64,000 nucleotides of DNA, taken from sequence record OZ346228.1; one strand, given 5' to 3'. The position numbers and the translations under genes were made by a program. The notes below the pieces were generated by a model that saw only the letters and a program-made list of their open reading frames with translations, was not told the origin of the DNA and ran no database searches. The DNA is from a phage. This document shows, in pieces, positions 3,914 to 62,897 of this stretch. Numbering within the stretch: position 1 is the first letter of the stretch; each line of letters starts with the position of its first letter.

Positions 3914-3976
3914 TGCTTGACAACAGTCATAGGGCCTACTATAATGGCCCTATCAAAACGAAAGGGGACCACAGCA

Positions 3977-10084: not shown

Positions 10085-10410
10085 CAGAGATCATCATTTC
10101 AACTGCAGGGTATGTATTCCTGACAATCATTGCACTGGCTATTTTGGTGACAGTGTATGGGTTTGTTATCCTTCCTATCCTTGAGACATTTAGTTTGTGT
10201 CGGTGTTGGAGAAAAGCTTACGGTCCACAACCATGGAAGGACTGGCCCCACCTGGTGCGCTTAGCGTTCTCTTATGCTTACGATCACTCCAGTAGTGCAT
10301 GCATAACCGGATACCACGCCCACAACTGGAGCTGGGAAGGGTTGAGGAAATGGAATGTTACAAAGACCATACCTCTGCGCATGTACAAACCTAAAAACAA
10401 AGACAACTGA
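10081..10410 (+). CDS. hypothetical membrane protein
   Basis: RBS aaggggagga; hydrophobic segment IIISTAGYVFLTIIALAILVTVYGFVILPIL. Confidence 0.55.
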   Translation: MTEIIISTAGYVFLTIIALAILVTVYGFVILPILETFSLCRCWRKAYGPQPWKDWPHLVRLAFSYAYDHSSSACITGYHAHNWSWEGLRKWNVTKTIPLRMYKPKNKDN

Positions 10411-10990
10411 TACTTGAAAATTCCTGGCATATCAAGTATAAGGGGGATTTCTAAAATGGATTTCCTCCTTTTGATATTTCACCGGGCTGGATATTTTAAA
10501 ATTCTTAGAAAATCAGAAAATGGATCGAAAACTAAAATGGATTTTTCAGAGTAGGCGCGACAAGCTGAATAACTCATCCTATCGTTTGCACCATATTCCA
10601 GGCCACCATTATAGATTTCCCACACATGCTAACCTCTCCCTACTAGAACTTCCTCCACTTACCCTTGACCTTCTATGGTAACAATCTAACCGCTATCTTG
10701 AAGTTGCGGTGCAGCTTTCCAGGTACTCGATCTACTTTTCATTTCAGGGCTTGGATTTTCTGAAAATTTTTCTCGATAAATTTCTCAGTACTCGATCTGT
10801 TTTTCGTTTTCTGAATCGGATTTTCTGGAAATCGTTCCGGCTCTCAACCTGAAATTTTTGGGGACGAAATCGATTTTTCGTTTTCAGAAATGGATTTTTA
10901 AAATTTCTATATGGGAATATTTTAGTGGATACTGTTTTATAGGAAATTGTTACGGAGGGTAATTAGCATGCTAATTAAATTTATTAAATG
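10411..10990. repeat. iteron-like non-coding tract with several short direct repeat families
   Basis: aaaatggattt (about 4 copies), ggattttctg (2), gtactcgatct (2), cgatttttcgttttc (2); no credible ORF. Confidence 0.6.
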
Positions 10991-11009
10991 CGAGGAGTTC
11001 TCATTTAGA

Positions 11010-11240
11010 ATTTTGAATGATAATCATTCTCGTTTGCAGAATAACGGGCAGGCCCGGTGATTGTCTCCCGGCCCCTGTTGCCCCGGCTTGTTATTATAGT
11101 ATCACACAGGACAAAGAAAGCAAGGACTTTTTGCATAAATTTTTAAATGATAATGATAACCGTTCTCATTTTATGCAGCGCCCATCCCCGGTGGTTGTCT
11201 CCCCCGTCACCGGTGCCTGCCGTCCTTTCGATATGTATAT
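11010..11240 (+). promoter_or_regulatory. two Fur-box-like sequences, each heading a conserved GC-rich element
   Basis: gaatgataatcattctc at 11015-11031 and aaatgataatgataacc at about 11145-11161 resemble the Fur box GATAATGATAATCATTATC; each followed by tgcag... and a GGTGRTTGTCTCCC hairpin-like element. Confidence 0.45.
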
Positions 11241-11594
11241 TGTGCCACCTGGCGGGGCCGCTGTCAACACTTTTCAAAAAATTTTTCTAACCTGGTGCGC
11301 TAACCGTTGCAACCTGGCGGGGCCAGCCTGGCAGGACCTAACTGACCAGGTAGGGGAGAATGAAGGCTTGTAAACCTGGTGGGCCTATGCTACAGGATAG
11401 GTAACAATTGAAGAGGAGGTACAAAAATGATATGATCCCCCTGGAAAATGTAGCTATTAATGACTCTGAGGCTATCGCCCTGGTTGAAAAGGCTATGGCG
11501 GGAGCGTTGGAACATAAAGAAGAGTACGAAAATGGTGGTTAACCTGGCGGGGGCGGCAGGTGGATTCTATCATAAAAATAATTTAAAATAGTAG

Positions 11595-17420: not shown

Positions 17421-17654
17421 ATGATGGAACAAATTAAACGCGCTGAGGCTATTAATGGCAATGTAATCTATTTTGTCAGCAAAAACGAAAAAGGCGTACC
17501 CTATGCGGCGGTAATAGTACAGCCTGACGGCGATTATTGGTGCACTGTGTACGGCGCTTATTCTTTTGGGCGTCCAGTGCATGATAAAATTTTGAAAGTA
17601 GCGAACCCTACCGGGAAAAATATTACAGCAGAAAAATTTTTTGAAAAAAGTTGA
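17421..17654 (+). CDS. hypothetical protein
   Basis: RBS aaagaggc before internal ATG (MMEQIK...). Confidence 0.5.
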   Translation: MMEQIKRAEAINGNVIYFVSKNEKGVPYAAVIVQPDGDYWCTVYGAYSFGRPVHDKILKVANPTGKNITAEKFFEKS

Positions 17655-17683
17655 CATGACCATATAAAACTGTAGTATATAAA
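17651..17683 (+). promoter_or_regulatory. sigma70-type promoter
   Basis: TTGACA followed by TATATAAAT-type -10 region; precedes a 59 aa ORF at 17731-17910. Confidence 0.5.
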
Positions 17684-18002
17684 TCAAAAGGGGGCAACAA
17701 GCCCCACCAACCACAAAGAGGATAAAAAATCATGGCTATTATTGCAAAGACCGAGATCGTAGGCTTAGATTCTATTCTCCTCGCATATGAGGAAGCTATA
17801 GAAATGTATGTGGTTTCCTATGGTGAGTATATCCGTGAATATGAATCTATTGATCTAGCTTTTGAATGTTATATTCGCCAGGTTAATAAAGCGTACGATG
17901 ATTATCGTTAAAATAGTTTGACAACAAACAACCATCTAACAAAGCATAATACATAAGGTGGTAGAATGATCCGCCACCCGGAACAAAGAAGAGGTAAACA
18001 CC

Positions 18003-18248
18003 ATGAAAAGCAATAAAGGTTATAACGGTTACAAAAACAAAACTCATTGGAATGTAAGCCTTTGGATTAATAACGATGAGTCATTGTACCGGTTGGCCCA
18101 AGGATTTATTAACGCTAATGCTAATCGTAATGATGCGGCGCGGGATATGATGCTTTTTCTGGAGCTAACCGGACAAGATAAGACCCCGGACGGCTTCAAG
18201 TACAGCACTACGGCGATCCGTGCCGCGATGGTTGGAATGAAACACTAA
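18003..18248 (+). CDS. hypothetical protein
   Basis: RBS aagaggtaaa. Confidence 0.5.
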   Translation: MKSNKGYNGYKNKTHWNVSLWINNDESLYRLAQGFINANANRNDAARDMMLFLELTGQDKTPDGFKYSTTAIRAAMVGMKH

Positions 18249-18399
18249 AAGCACATAGCCGCCAGATCTCAGAATTTACGTACGCTCACCAGTCTATAGC
18301 CTGCTAAGTATTTATTCCAACCATAGAATAACGGAATAGTCAATACCTGCATAAAATAATTATTCGTGTAAACTGCATAACATAAATCGGCTAGGATGT

Positions 18400-19150
18400 C
18401 AACATTTTTCGTAAACAGCTCGAAATTATAACGGTGAGTTATAATAAACAGAGAAATCTTTAGTCGTCTAATGTTTACTGTACATTACTATACTGACTGG
18501 AATCATTAGATGACTAAGAGAAAGATAAGAAATCATTAACAATGCAATTGTTTTATTCGTAACAATAAGGCAACTATGCAAACGGATGGCATGGCGCGAC
18601 GGAGTCGCGACATAATATAAAAGCAGTAACCATCACCCCCGTGATAGTTTGTCTGCAAACTATTAATCAGATCATAGTTGCCTTGTATTTAGTTAATCAT
18701 GACATAACAAGCAAGGCAACTATAGATCTGCTAATAGTTGCCCTGCTTTTATATTATGTCATAGATTATTAGCCTGTTAATTGTTAGTCAGTCAAATCAA
18801 CAACGTTATCATTTCAGTCTTTATTGTTGTTGATCGTTATTGTTATCATGCAAACGAATGGCATGGCTTATCATTTTTGAGTAAACAATCTATACGTGAA
18901 CAGTGAGGCATGCAATAGTAAGGGCGGGAATAATGAGAGTGTAAACTGTCAGGCATGTCAATTATATCAATCGTGTCAGTTATGTCACCATTATGTCAGA
19001 CAAGTTTTTCTCCTCTTTGTCAAGTGCTGCATGAAAAATTTACAATCTTGTATGGTAGCATTTTTGCGGCCCTGTTTACATTCAGTATTGTATGTATAAT
19101 CCTTGTTGTGTGGGCGTTTAGACGTCTAGACGGTCAGAAGTCTGCAGGTT
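18400..19150. repeat. palindrome- and repeat-dense non-coding region between convergent transcription blocks (candidate origin or packaging/regulatory region)
   Basis: 18 bp inverted repeat gacataatataaaagcag / ctgcttttatattatgtc; aaggcaactat / atagttgcctt inverted repeats; direct repeat atgcaaacgRatggcatggc (2 copies); hairpins gcgcgac-gga-gtcgcg and atagtttg-tctgc-aaactat. Confidence 0.55.
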
Positions 19151-20435
19151 AATATCTAATCTATCGGCTGCTAACTATATCCCACACAAATAGTAAGAAA
19201 TATAATTGTTATGTGCGTAAACAGTAACTCATGTTATCAATCCCTGTATGTATCGCCAGTGGTGCGCATAATGGGTATTATGTTAAATTGCCCGTAATGA
19301 TAATGGTTCTCACAATGATAGGTATTCTCATTCCCCCACACAAAATAGATTGCAAATGTTGTGCCACTATGTGAACGGCCTCACCTATTAATTTGCCTCA
19401 CTGCCTCGATATTTGAGAATTATCATAAGAATGAGAAGTATTCCCATTTCGTCCGCCTGGCAGCACTCCAGTCGCTACGGCTCAGAACAGGGCAGAATTG
19501 TGTCCATTCAGATATTTCTGTCTGGCTCTTCAGGTCTGTGTGGGAAAAGTCCACCTCTCTGGCGGGGCATGGGGTCATGACGGGAAAATTGCAGGTCAAT
19601 TAAAAAATTTACGTGGTGTATGAAGCGCTCTTCAGGTAAGGCATGTATTATGGGATGAAACCCTCTTCAGGCAATGATATTTGTGGGTGTGATATTTGCT
19701 GGAAAGCCAGATATGACGGGACTCCCGGCGGGGCAGGGGTAGTACAGACAGGGGAAATATGGAGGATGTGGTTAGGTGAATTGATCAGACAGGTAGAGTA
19801 TGGAATATGTTACAGGTATGTTAAATAGGGCGGCTGAATATCTGTAGGATTTGTGTGTAAAATCAAAGACTTAAGTGGTGTTGTGGTATTTTCTATAAAT
19901 AATTCAAGTTTAATAGGTAATATTTGTCTCTATTCGCTTTGTGTGGTAAACAGATTCAGATGAGATTGGTTTACAAGCGTATACATAATATACAAATTAA
20001 AGATACAAGAAACCCCCCTCCCCCTTCGGCTACCATTCACCTTTTCCTCTGACTGGTACTTAAACACTTATTCAGACTCTTCAGGTTATCACCCATATAT
20101 CATATGGCAGTGACTGGTGTCCTCCGGCCCCTCTTTCGTCACCCGTCCGCTTCGCCATGCTAATGCCATAGCCAATGGTTCGGTTGTTCACCCTGTTCAC
20201 TCAGGTGTATCTCCATACCCCTTCAAAACGAAGAGAACAGAAAACCCGAATTACTCGGTAAAAGAAAAGAGAAGAACTTAATTTTATCAGGATAGGCAAG
20301 AATGTCAAGGCATGACTGCTCACTAAACAAGCAAACAGTCATGTGTGGGAGGTAAGTGATTGTGGTGGTAGGAAATTTAGTTGAAAGATGTGTTATAGGT
20401 GCTTCCAGCACTTTAGCCGGGCAGCTAATTGTGTG

Positions 20436-20651
20436 TCAGTCCAGCGGTTCATCCTCTACTTCACTGAAATCAATGTTCATGGTCTCTTCCCAACCATCGA
20501 TCTCAGCACAAGAGTGGAGTTCTTTAGGGTTTACTCCTAAAGCCTCAGCAACAGAGTCTATATTTAACACCTCTGGCAGGTATGATTCATCAAATTCAAG
20601 GTAAATCAGGCCACGAGTGTTGTCAGCTCCACCAAATATTTCTATCTTCAT
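20436..20651 (-). CDS. hypothetical acidic protein
   Basis: RBS gaggag upstream of ATG; last gene of leftward block. Confidence 0.5.
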   Translation of the reverse strand: MKIEIFGGADNTRGLIYLEFDESYLPEVLNIDSVAEALGVNPKELHSCAEIDGWEETMNIDFSEVEDEPLD

Positions 20652-20772
20652 AAAATCTCCTCTGGAAATGAGAGTGTGAACAGGGTTTTATACGTCCCAA
20701 TGCACAGGAATTATGCACGTTTTCCTCTTCAGGCCATGCTTTAGCATGAGGAACCTGTGTGGGCTCGGTGCT

Positions 20773-20985
20773 TCATAGTCTACCACCTCTGAACTCTTCG
20801 TGCTCAGGCATAATAGAGAACCAGATATCTACGATGTCCTCCCACGTCAGGTCATCAGCCTCAGGATCTGTCTGGGACGAAGATGAAGAGTCCTCAGAAT
20901 CTAAGTTTTCCTCTTTAACTGGCTCATCCAAGGGACATATGGTCACTCCTTCGGATGTCTCTTCAGATGCATGTGTGTTGATCAT
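20773..20985 (-). CDS. hypothetical acidic Ser-rich protein
   Basis: ORF in leftward block. Confidence 0.4.
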   Translation of the reverse strand: MINTHASEETSEGVTICPLDEPVKEENLDSEDSSSSSQTDPEADDLTWEDIVDIWFSIMPEHEEFRGGRL

Positions 20986-21345
20986 GTTCCACCCGTGAGT
21001 ATTCCGGCAACAGCTGCTATGGACGTAATGATCATCAGGATCACCACTAAAACTTCGGACAATGTTCTCATTGTGTACTCCATATTCTACAAACTATGTG
21101 TGGATACTATCACTGGATCGGTAATGTGTCAACAGAAACGCCGCGAGGGTTTGGTTAAAATCCGAGCGTATGGTGATTTGGGTCAAAACGGACGTGCGTT
21201 CTCGCTACGCTCGAAAGAGAGATTTGTTTGTAGGAAGCTCTTAAACGCTCTGTAATGAGATTATCTGTCCAAGGTATGCAATCGTGCACCAGATAAAGAA
21301 AAGGACGCCACAGAGCGTCCTAGGTGTCTTAAATTTGATATTTTG

Positions 21346-21657
21346 CTATACCCATGAGGGCTTATCAAGGTTGGAGTAGCTGAAAGGTGTCAAAAGGTGA
21401 CTGTCAAAATCTCTCAAACTATCTAAATCTTTTTCCTCGTCCTGACACCATCTGTGCCTACATTTATTGTTGTAGTGCATAGAATGCATAGCGTTCTGCA
21501 ACTTAACAGGTACAAGTGATTCAGGAGTAGATAGTATTGTTGGGTATGCCAGAATCACCTCAAACAGTGGAAACACATCGAAACTAAAGTCTACCTCTGC
21601 AGAGGTTGATGGCATATAGGAGTATTTAGCCGCCTTTGTAGACATAATCCACCTCAC
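21346..21657 (-). CDS. hypothetical protein
   Basis: ORF in compact leftward array. Confidence 0.45.
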   Translation of the reverse strand: MRWIMSTKAAKYSYMPSTSAEVDFSFDVFPLFEVILAYPTILSTPESLVPVKLQNAMHSMHYNNKCRHRWCQDEEKDLDSLRDFDSHLLTPFSYSNLDKPSWV

Positions 21658-22034: not shown

Positions 22035-22340
22035 TCATTCTACAGAGCGTTTGAACAGAATGTCTGCCTCAGACATGTGCTCAACCTCTTCTTCGATTTT
22101 AGCGCGACGTTTTTCAGCCTCATAGCGAATATCGAACTCGGTAGCCACCAGAGATTTGATGAATTTAGGAGAATACAGGTGATCCTGCTTCTCAACGAGA
22201 ATGATATCCTTAATGGCATCTTTCAGATCTTTAATCTGAAGTTGGAGTTCTACCAGTTCTTCGATTGTTTTGCGAAGGCGATCACGCTCTGCAGTGTCAG
22301 AAGGAAGAGAGGTGAACAGTTCAACTTTAGATTTAGCCAT
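22035..22340 (-). CDS. hypothetical coiled-coil protein
   Basis: ORF; charged heptad-like sequence. Confidence 0.5.
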   Translation of the reverse strand: MAKSKVELFTSLPSDTAERDRLRKTIEELVELQLQIKDLKDAIKDIILVEKQDHLYSPKFIKSLVATEFDIRYEAEKRRAKIEEEVEHMSEADILFKRSVE

Positions 22341-62084: not shown

Positions 62085-62159
62085 GCCCTGTTAGCTTAGT
62101 GGATAAAGCAGCGGCCTTCTAAGCCGTTGACACTGGTTCGAGTCCAGTACGGGGTGCCA
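62085..62159 (+). tRNA. tRNA-Arg (anticodon TCT)
   Basis: Manual fold: D stem GCTT/AAGC, anticodon loop CTTCTAA, T loop TTCGAGT, 3' CCA encoded; acceptor stem has two G-U pairs. Confidence 0.7.
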
Positions 62160-62163
62160 AATT

Positions 62164-62250
62164 GGGGAGTTATCCCGTAGAGGTAGCGGTGTAGACTGTA
62201 AATCTATTGTCATTGCGACTCGGGTGGTTCGACTCCACCACTCCCCACCA
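62164..62250 (+). tRNA. tRNA-Tyr (anticodon GTA), long variable arm
   Basis: Acceptor GGGGAGT/ACTCCCC, anticodon loop CTGTAAA, T loop TTCGACT, CCA encoded. Confidence 0.8.
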
Positions 62251-62364
62251 AATTTATATTTTTAGATGCATAAATAATACAGATAATGGCATTGATATTT
62301 ATCGTCGTTTATACTAGTCACTAACTGCTCGAAAATCAGTGTCATTATCAGTATTATTTATAAA

Positions 62365-62455
62365 GGAGGGTAGGGAGCAATGGTGCTCAATCGGTCTTGA
62401 AAACCGTCCCGTTGAGGATGACTCGATGATGGTTCGATTCCATTACTCTCCGCCA
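62365..62455 (+). tRNA. tRNA-Ser (anticodon TGA), long variable arm
   Basis: Acceptor GGAGGGT/ACTCTCC, anticodon loop CTTGAAA, T loop TTCGATT, CCA encoded. Confidence 0.7.
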
Positions 62456-62553
62456 CATTGTTGACCTTGTAATTAAGCGAAAGTCGGAAGCAGAACCGGA
62501 TTATCAAATGTTACAGTCGTCATCGCCGACTAGCAACATGGTCAACATACTGA

Positions 62554-62652
62554 GCTAGGTAAGCCCTTTGGCAAGGGCGAGGATTTTTAATCCTGAAAAT
62601 AGACGAGGTAGTCGTTGAATACATAGGTGGTTCGATTCCATCACCTAGCACC
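62554..62652 (+). tRNA. atypical tRNA-like gene; anticodon loop TTTTTAA (Lys-TTT-like), about 28 nt extra between anticodon and T arms; may be a pseudo-tRNA
   Basis: Acceptor GCTAGGT/ACCTAGC, D arm GCCC-TTTGGCAA-GGGC, T loop TTCGATT; variable region far longer than class I; CCA not fully encoded. Confidence 0.35.
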
Positions 62653-62657
62653 TTTTT

Positions 62658-62733
62658 GCTGATGTAGCACAATCGGTAGTGCAATTGATTTGTAATCAAT
62701 AGGTTGTAGGTTCAAGTCCTGCCATCAGCACCA
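62658..62733 (+). tRNA. tRNA-Thr (anticodon TGT)
   Basis: Acceptor GCTGATG/CATCAGC, anticodon stem-loop ATTGA-TTTGTAA-TCAAT, T loop TTCAAGT, CCA encoded. Confidence 0.8.
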
Positions 62734-62734
62734 A

Positions 62735-62809
62735 GGCCCTGTAGCTGGAAGGTTCAAGCAAGCGACTCATAATCGCCAGACGGTGGTTCAATTCCACCCA
62801 GGGCCACCA
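62735..62809 (+). tRNA. tRNA-Met/Ile2-type (anticodon CAT)
   Basis: Acceptor GGCCCTG/CAGGGCC, anticodon loop CTCATAA, T loop TTCAATT, CCA encoded. Confidence 0.8.
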
Positions 62810-62820
62810 AATAGTAAATA

Positions 62821-62897
62821 CTCCGCGTAGCTCAGCTTGGTAGAGCGCCTGATTTGGGATCAGGAGGTCGAGTGTTCGAATCACTCCGTGGAGACCA
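62821..62897 (+). tRNA. tRNA-Pro (anticodon TGG)
   Basis: C1-G72 acceptor, D stem GCTC/GAGC, anticodon stem-loop CCTGA-TTTGGGA-TCAGG, T loop TTCGAAT, CCA encoded. Confidence 0.8.

Follow-up and report, generated by a model that had tools for sequence, protein, structure and literature searches.

The closest described counterpart of the locus reported here is the concatemer junction of phages T7 and T3, which has fixed ends formed by a short exact direct terminal repeat (160 bp in T7). Arrays of short repeats directly adjoin this repeat on the outside, and hairpin-capable sequence lies within a few hundred bp of it on the unique side. T7 hairpin DNA, reportedly described by Chung, Nardone and Hinkle in 1990, is said to feature in models of repeat duplication, a step that is incompletely solved even for T7. 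A passage in PMC4281155 states that hairpin-ended DNA containing the terminal repeat has been reported in T7 infection. A similar set of features lies in a 64,000-nucleotide stretch of phage DNA (sequence record OZ346228.1; referred to as the window, position 1 being its first letter), namely a presumed direct terminal repeat of 459 bp, short repeat arrays immediately outside it and, within a few hundred bp on the unique side, a 152-nt branched palindromic element (18609–18760), which is the main subject of this work. The likeness extends to a relative, the Klebsiella phage KPP-1 (Mydovirus), which was classed as T7-type by PhageTerm. There is, however, no sequence similarity to T7 or T3, the element here is much larger and branched, and the phage is a 137-kb myovirus with host-RNA-polymerase promoters, so that pausing of a phage RNA polymerase at the junction, as in T7, cannot apply.

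The window belongs to an rV5-like coliphage of the genus Vequintavirus (megablast of 17500–20500 returned 279 phage records, the best at 91–95% identity). Its plus-strand genes stop at 18248 and the first minus-strand gene ends at 20436, leaving a gene-free stretch of ~2.2 kb (18249–20435) between the two convergent blocks. An earlier sequence-only reading of this DNA had correctly placed the convergence here; it had also described about 1.1 kb free of genes, and while no gene-like open reading frame (ORF) was found in that interval (18250–19350), the gap is longer than it had stated. In rV5, the same locus has no annotated gene for ~2.6 kb between ORF163 and ORF164 and was drawn as a grey 'non-coding' box in the genome map (Kropinski et al. 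2013).

The palindrome density of this region exceeds chance. A perfect 18-nt inverted repeat (GACATAATATAAAAGCAG at 18609–18626 and CTGCTTTTATATTATGTC at 18743–18760, with 116 nt between the arms) is the longest perfect one in the 64 kb (loop up to 300), and none of 1000 dinucleotide shuffles of 18500–18900 reached 18 nt (longest 14); the summed arm length was 119 vs 44 ± 24 in the shuffles. When inverted-repeat density was scored in 600-bp windows over the whole sequence, the top five all started within 18201–18601. The individual repeats named in the sequence-only reading were recovered: the 18 bp inverted repeat as given above, the nested aaggcaactat-type repeats as AAGGCAACTAT at 18567 and 18713 with the complement at 18674 and, as ATAGTTGCCCT, at 18734, and the short hairpins at 18596–18610, 18628–18649, 18644–18663 and 18709–18748. 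A direct repeat said to be 22 bp long with copies about 270 bp apart is also present (ATGCAAACGRATGGCATGGC at 18576 and 18848, 272 bp apart), its length being 20 nt. These palindromes are not independent, as most of them are parts of one nested 152-nt element.

Secondary-structure prediction, which had been suggested along with the reading, returned a single branched hairpin with z of about −9 to −10. Its outer stem is the perfect 18-bp repeat, inside which lie a side hairpin (18628–18649) and a long inner stem (about 18655–18690 paired with 18712–18742); the inner stem holds three (18674, 18715 and 18734) of four clustered GGCAACTAT sites, the fourth (18569) being located upstream of the element. 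Folded as single-stranded DNA, the element reached −48.4 kcal/mol (z −10), and folded as RNA it gave z of −9.4 and −8.7 on the two strands, both of which form the branched hairpin. Just beyond the left arm, a G+C hairpin (CGCGAC-GGA-GTCGCG, 18596–18610; −10.4 kcal/mol, z −3.0) is invariant in relatives.

Within the genus the element is strongly conserved. A 167-bp core was found in 118 of 120 Vequintavirus records, 108 of which have it at 95% identity or more; the remaining ten core-bearing records have a 33-bp insertion in the apical loop, as in rV5 and C9, where the insertion of 33 nt leaves the stems untouched. In an alignment of 17 genomes (the window and 16 relatives), from which the anatomy of the region and nucleotide diversity (pi) were taken and identity to the window was computed per 50-bp bin, pi of the element was 0.0195 vs 0.05–0.07 in the flanks and 0.30 in the adjoining repeat array (18763–18998). 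Conservation ends abruptly at 18762, the end of ATTATGTCAT, two bases past the right arm. Unpaired positions make up 25% of the element and hold eight of its 15 variable sites; three further sites are wobble-compatible, and an A>G change at 18714 in naswa repairs the sole mismatch of the 18709–18748 hairpin; the loops and spacers are nearly invariant as well. Since the element is single-copy in the window and a search of 5,426 complete E. coli genomes did not recover it, it is, on sequence comparison, neither mobile nor host-derived (REP/ERIC/MITE-like).

Homologues in other genera keep the fold. In KPP-1, the inverted repeat is perfect over 21 nt, its arms are separated by 164 nt, and it forms a branched hairpin (z −11). 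KPP-1-type elements, 72–93% identical to the copy in KPP-1, occur in Mydovirus, Seunavirus and unclassified relatives, and 11 complete copies were examined (KPP-1, Mydo, PVP-SE1, 4MG, GAP31, FENT2, SPLA5a, KNP2, BIS47, Ro1 and one uncultivated genome). All 11, together with a more divergent copy from an Erwinia phage (Henunavirus), have a perfect outer repeat of 18–21 nt with arms 150–215 nt apart, and the arm sequences differ between phages. The consensus fold comprises four helices, namely an outer stem, an inner stem of 13 bp and a pair of side hairpins; in Mydo, the loop of the second of these hairpins has taken up 53 nt that are themselves palindromic, with the stems intact. In an alignment of 7 sequences, 98.3% of cells pair, 10 double-change cells were observed vs 3.2 expected, and the covariation score was reached by 0 of 500 shuffles, all slid controls scoring 0. 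Compensatory changes were seen in 5 of 51 pairs among these 7 sequences and in 9 of 49 among 12, the latter despite a misaligned divergent Erwinia arm. The arms in the window match those of KPP-1 at 12 of 18 nt in the equivalent position (~4e-4 by chance), all six differences being compensated, and the flanks share GTTAC before the distal arm and TGTCGC across its outer end; judged from these similarities, the two pairs of arms are homologous. The Erwinia copy joins the two types because it combines a KPP-1-type inner stem with a window-type outer arm (TATAAAAGCA). Conservation of the symmetry in relatives, to which the sequence-only reading had pointed as informative, was thus found in the form of a fold maintained with compensatory changes, and by this comparison the element keeps its synteny and structure in at least four genera. 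We conclude that it is very probably a folded structure under purifying selection for base pairing.

Covariation of this kind is also what a structured non-coding RNA would display, and such a gene could have its promoter just outside the terminal repeat, be read in the direction away from the repeat and stop at a minus-strand terminator. In line with this, a strong sigma-70-like promoter on the minus strand (18988–18961; 11/12 matches and an extended −10) faces the element, and KPP-1 and PVP-SE1 have in common a conserved, weak promoter-like site upstream of their elements. However, the promoter in the window lies inside the hypervariable array, its −35 is not conserved, and the transcript would start with a hypervariable leader of ~190 nt. 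A scan of window 17500–21500 with the Rfam 15 covariance models gave no match with E up to 1, and the KPP-1 locus gave two chance-level Rfam matches only, neither on the element. A perfect palindrome folds equally on both strands, a property that an RNA gene does not need. Wobble asymmetry (G·T vs A·C) pointed to opposite strands for the two element types, and the count itself is biased by which strand is submitted for folding. We consider an RNA gene improbable.

The position of the element relative to the chromosome end is given by a neighbouring repeat. The genome announcement of the Vequintavirus Gotham reports 459-bp terminal repeats with doubled coverage and fixed ends, the start sequence being the same in all virions, unlike in the permuted phages sequenced alongside. 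The repeat annotated at both ends of the Gotham record maps to exactly 459 bp of the window (18999–19457), beginning with GACAAGTTTTT at 18999 and ending with TTTCGTCCGCC at 19457. This segment aligns end to end (459/459 nt, 93–98% identity) with the record termini of at least six phages: it is found at both record ends in EdH4 and YN3, as in Gotham, while the records of bov10K2 and bov22_2 open with it and that of ECP2303 closes with it; in the HdK5 record the adjacent sequence stands at positions 460–919. Identity to the window within the segment was 88–98% per bin (pi 0.054). On the strength of this homology, a terminal repeat very probably occupies 18999–19457. The terminal repeat of KPP-1 (514 bp) was confirmed both by coverage and, as T7-type, by PhageTerm; it likewise sits in a gene-poor gap between convergent blocks, and its ends are visibly related to those of the repeat in the window. 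A scan of IMG/VR with a 28-mer from the terminal repeat returned no hits, and shorter invariant words did match. The 34-bp 'repeat_region' of the pangalan and naswa records falls within the terminal repeat and resembles an automatic annotation.

Among the functions that the sequence-only reading had offered for the interval, a packaging site comes closest to the evidence because packaging cuts on concatemers would fall at the repeat, one boundary and most of which lie within 18250–19350. Read-terminus analysis, also suggested there, is answered in the same sense by relatives, whose read-defined termini fall inside the interval. The palindromes themselves, however, on which the proposal had been built, are 238 bp outside the repeat.

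The segment between the element and the repeat is a hypervariable short-repeat array (18763–18998, 236 bp), which ranges from 95 to 323 bp among the 17 phages. It contains the second copy of the 20-nt direct repeat (18848–18867), GTAAAC-type units of 15–16 bp and, at 18947–18998, TGTCA-type repeats with spacings of 9, 18, 9 and 11 bp that run up to the presumed cut site; in typing phage 4 the segment has tandem arrays of period 15–16. The 9-mer ATTATGTCA has only two copies in the window and these bound the array, one at 18753 on the outer edge of the palindrome and one at 18990 abutting the cut site. Four of the five occurrences of TTATGTCA in the window lie between 18700 and 18998. Phased short repeats serve as terminase recognition sites in the R sites of lambda cosB and in the pacL/pacR boxes of SPP1. 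By analogy, the TGTCA-type repeats abut the cleavage position as binding of a small terminase would lead one to expect, but unlike in those systems their number and sequence differ from one close relative to another.

The T5 injection stop region offers another comparison, as it is large, untranslated, tied to a terminal repeat, dense in direct and inverted repeats and palindromes, and conserved among relatives. If the locus were an ejection-pause or entry signal of this type, the clustering of repeats within a few hundred bp of the chromosome end would be accounted for here too. The T5 signal, however, is inside a terminal repeat of ~10 kb and built around eight DnaA boxes, whereas the element lies outside a 459-bp repeat and has no DnaA boxes. 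We know of no report of two-step ejection for rV5-like phages, and an ejection signal appears barely credible.

Taken as a whole, the interval is best explained, if tentatively, as part of the chromosome-end control region of a phage with T7-like short exact direct terminal repeats. The distance between element and repeat is 238 bp here and 308 bp in KPP-1, on the same side, and in KPP-1 a different motif, TTATCATTTG, is likewise common to the cut-site flank and the element. A constant fold, a fixed position near one repeat boundary and a motif shared with the cut-site flank together suggest a cis-acting structure linked to the chromosome end. Such a structure would act as nucleic acid, most likely DNA, either as a snap-back hairpin on a displaced strand or as an extruded cruciform, during replication or processing of concatemer junctions, and would help each daughter end to regain a complete terminal repeat. 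DNA is favoured over RNA by the KPP-1-type arms, which carry no U-tract, and by the terminators that stand before the element in Mydo and PVP-SE1 and bracket repeat and palindrome in KPP-1. The TGTCA-type repeats that reach the cut site would be likely recognition sites for a terminase or nicking enzyme, with the cut site and the palindrome's outer edge marked by the same 9-mer (ATTATGTCA). By analogy with T7, action of the element at the DNA level in end processing or replication is a possibility that we put forward with some reserve. A bolder version, which we consider rather unlikely, would make the branched palindrome a cis-acting signal of a new class, used in packaging or replication by phages with short terminal repeats: a DNA hairpin or cruciform 240–310 bp inside the chromosome end would be nicked or bound at a ATTATGTCA-type motif and would be needed to duplicate the terminal repeat at concatemer resolution, perhaps via the endonuclease VII-like enzyme of the subfamily.

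Several points weigh against the assignment to end processing. The most direct is FV3, a propagated phage and the only one of about 120 records that is without the element. A clean 272-bp deletion between the 20-nt direct repeats (window 18596–18867) has removed the whole of it, the left endpoint being set by copy 1 of the repeat (ATGCAAACGGATGGCATGGC, plus strand, 18576–18595), so that in FV3 a single copy of the 20-nt repeat joins the left flank to the sequence that otherwise follows copy 2; no inverted repeat of more than 8 nt takes the place of the element there. Either the element is dispensable in the laboratory and its loss viable, or the record is faulty through a cloning or assembly artefact of the long palindrome. 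The virion ends of the phage in the window are inferred by homology to mapped relatives, and published statements on genome ends conflict, rV5 having been called circularly permuted (2013) and another Vequintavirus isolate headful by PhageTerm (2026). Few independent events underlie the covariation in the 12 sequences, and perfect arms could stem from intramolecular gene conversion instead of functional selection. The analogy with T7 draws on one secondary citation, and the hairpin or cruciform in vivo is a prediction. Finally, a role at the RNA level also fits, as both strands have good terminator features and no other terminator lies between the last plus-strand gene and the element.

Loss in FV3 would also fit a palindrome without function, kept symmetrical by intramolecular gene conversion, or a selfish insertion, for which the flanking 20-nt direct repeats could be read as a target duplication. 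These repeats do not abut the inverted repeat, however, and the ends of the element are not terminal inverted repeats. The element is, moreover, the most conserved segment amid hypervariable neighbours, its synteny and structure extend over at least four genera, and copies elsewhere in the window or in the E. coli genomes are lacking. A functionless or selfish palindrome is thus highly improbable.

The terminator features require closer consideration. Bidirectional rho-independent terminators resemble the element in having an A-tract/T-tract dyad at a point of convergence and a hairpin followed by a U-tract on both strands, and Kropinski et al. (2013) had expected genes 163 and 164 of rV5 to be separated by a bidirectional terminator, which was not found. 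On the plus strand, a hairpin with a 15-bp stem containing one mismatch and a 10-nt loop is followed by TTTTATATTAT (18709–18756; −25.3 kcal/mol, z −6.1), and on the minus strand the terminator scan identified a hairpin followed by the same 18-nt T-rich sequence (18612–18655; −18 kcal/mol, z −2.6, which is weak). The stem-loops (18709–18748 on the plus strand, 18655–18624 on the minus strand) are directly followed by this U-rich 18-mer in both directions, and the repeat would be perfect and A/T-rich because each hairpin runs into the same sequence. If the whole element were a bidirectional intrinsic terminator, possibly also serving as an RNase III or 3'-end stabilising structure, the inverted repeat would be its A-tract/U-tract pair. 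In support of this, the Murica record has a terminator annotated at the site and the Alma record has one under the same match, the scan found no other plus-strand terminator after the last gene in the window, and variation is concentrated in the loop of the 18709–18748 hairpin, one change mending its mismatch.

On the other hand, the element measures 152–210 nt and has conserved side hairpins and an inner stem; it is five to ten times the size of known bidirectional terminators and far larger than termination needs, and its nearly invariant loops and spacers are unlike those of ordinary terminators. The sister genera are more telling. The arms of Mydovirus and Seunavirus homologues are not followed by a U-tract on either side, and in KPP-1 canonical terminators stand directly after the last genes of both blocks (2193–2215, and a strong bidirectional one at 3916–3932), bracketing the repeat and the palindrome; the annotations of Mydo and PVP-SE1 likewise place terminators before the element. 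With no U-tracts in the homologues and separate canonical terminators on either side of them, the conserved function cannot be termination, and a terminator as the full explanation seems doubtful. Termination is probably an added role in Vequintavirus, where the arms would have turned into an A-tract and a T-tract and the end-processing element would double as an intrinsic terminator for both directions, shielding the end region from convergent transcription.

A replication origin, another suggestion of the sequence-only reading, was not borne out. The GGCAACTAT sites (five in the window, four of them inside 175 bp and alternating in orientation) could be taken for iterons of a phage initiator and the hairpin for an unwinding or priming structure, all the more so as the site is non-coding and lies at a switch in strand composition; secondary origins of T7 are also located near the genome ends. 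These 'iterons', however, are paired stem halves and are not conserved in sequence in the other genera, where pairing alone is kept. There are no strict DnaA boxes (one relaxed match is 1.1 kb away), no clusters of IHF or Fis sites, and none of the host-factor sites searched for (DnaA, IHF, Fis and Chi) was enriched. An AT-rich unwinding element does not adjoin the site either, the nearest strongly AT-rich stretch being 1.1 kb off and the lowest-GC stretch at 19886. The skew change coincides with the switch in transcription and is explained by gene orientation, in agreement with Kropinski et al. (2013), who concluded that skew shifts at the gap of rV5 simply track transcription direction. As FV3 manages without the element, too, we assign an origin a low probability.

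The remaining suggestion, a recombination hotspot, holds for the flanks and not for the palindrome core, which is the most conserved piece. Both the 236-bp array and the first ~150 bp past the other repeat boundary are hypervariable, with copy-number changes and insertions, and the FV3 deletion between 20-nt repeats and a homology break exactly at 18255 are further signs of this kind. The variable segment beyond the other boundary (19458–19604; pi 0.126) has its insertion point after 19478. In I29, a 594-bp insertion lies just after this position, 21 nt outside the repeat boundary, and other relatives have insertions of 1–50 nt at the same point, which marks it as an insertion hotspot. Conserved non-coding blocks frame the whole arrangement. 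The one on the left (18255–18544) showed 89–98% identity across the 16 relatives (pi 0.071) and has no conserved ORF; the one on the right (19605–20435, ~830 bp, extending to the stop of the first minus-strand gene) showed 89–99% identity (pi 0.02–0.05), is G-rich on the plus strand and also has no conserved ORF. On this side of the gap, CTCTTCAGG occurs four times (at 19526 in the variable segment and at 19628, 19663 and 20077), a 25-nt repeat is found at 19745 and 19786, and the minus strand has a strong sigma-70-like promoter (20308–20281) and a terminator-like site (20258–20246).

In the literature we found no description of the palindromic element or its conservation across genera, nor of the variable arrays and the layout of the end region. 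The 'non-coding' box of rV5 and the annotated repeats of Gotham and KPP-1 concern the same locus or terminal repeat, and the papers reporting them give no anatomy of the gap, function or palindrome; the terminal repeat and the gap are therefore already known, and the conserved structure appears to be undescribed. The rV5-like phages rank among the coliphages isolated most often and find use in typing and therapy, and their 2-kb 'non-coding' gap has never been explained. The terminal repeat and its folded neighbour form a concrete, mutable target for studying how short terminal repeats are duplicated during packaging and, if the new class of signal is real, would provide the first sequence-defined, covariation-supported handle on T7-type repeat regeneration. 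For annotators, the locus shows where these genomes should be opened and that the flanks of the repeat are indel-prone. Those who engineer or reboot such genomes should keep the element or deliberately try dropping it, which FV3 suggests might work.

As for the coding content of the gap, none of the ORFs of at least 40 aa in 18250–20435 was conserved or had a coding substitution pattern, and most of those in 18250–19350 are broken in relatives. Two candidates were rejected: the ORF at 19231–19374 is intact in relatives but shows no codon-position bias (9/7/9), and that at 19643–19828 has third-position bias but has lost its ATG in 9 of 16 relatives (AGG in 8, ATA in 1) and has a variable end. 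Rfam and tRNA scans found nothing within the gap. On its plus-strand side, the alignment with every relative begins exactly at 18255, and by this comparison the segment 17418–18254 meets the conserved non-coding block at a mosaic junction. This segment is without the equivalents of rV5 ORF164–170 that relatives carry there; 17418–17955 matches genes 54–55 of pangalan, which are ~2.5 kb further upstream in that phage, and the last plus-strand gene (18003–18248), coding for a DUF7249 protein, has no counterpart at that position in pangalan, rV5, typing phage 4, Murica or ev147.

Neighbouring genes were of little help in locating the junction in other genera. ORF165 of rV5, labelled FtsK-like in some records, was not found beyond Vequintavirus, and as a conserved DNA-binding partner of the element it was discarded, having no Pfam domain and only an unrelated gene of the same length in KPP-1; the DUF7249 protein encoded by the last plus-strand gene of the window is likewise unrelated to it. 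The gene at 22035–22340 is widely conserved but, in GAP31, CR8, the Erwinia phage and TH18, is surrounded by genes of one orientation and not close to the junction.

Elsewhere in the window, the next-ranked inverted-repeat density was found in a second ORF-poor stretch (10410–11017 and 11243–11554), which contains three direct repeats of 47–57 nt spaced 65 and 74 bp (10713–10898) and three copies of the G-rich 17-mer TGCCACCTGGCGGGGCC. At least 18 GenBank records of the MG0656xx series, titled 'UNVERIFIED: Campylobacter phage ...', are Vequintavirus genomes that are 93–97% identical to coliphages over the region and probably represent mislabelled or contaminant assemblies. In a cluster of seven tRNA genes (62085–62897), ARAGORN called a 99-nt 'tRNA-???' with a four-base anticodon (atcc) at 62554–62652.

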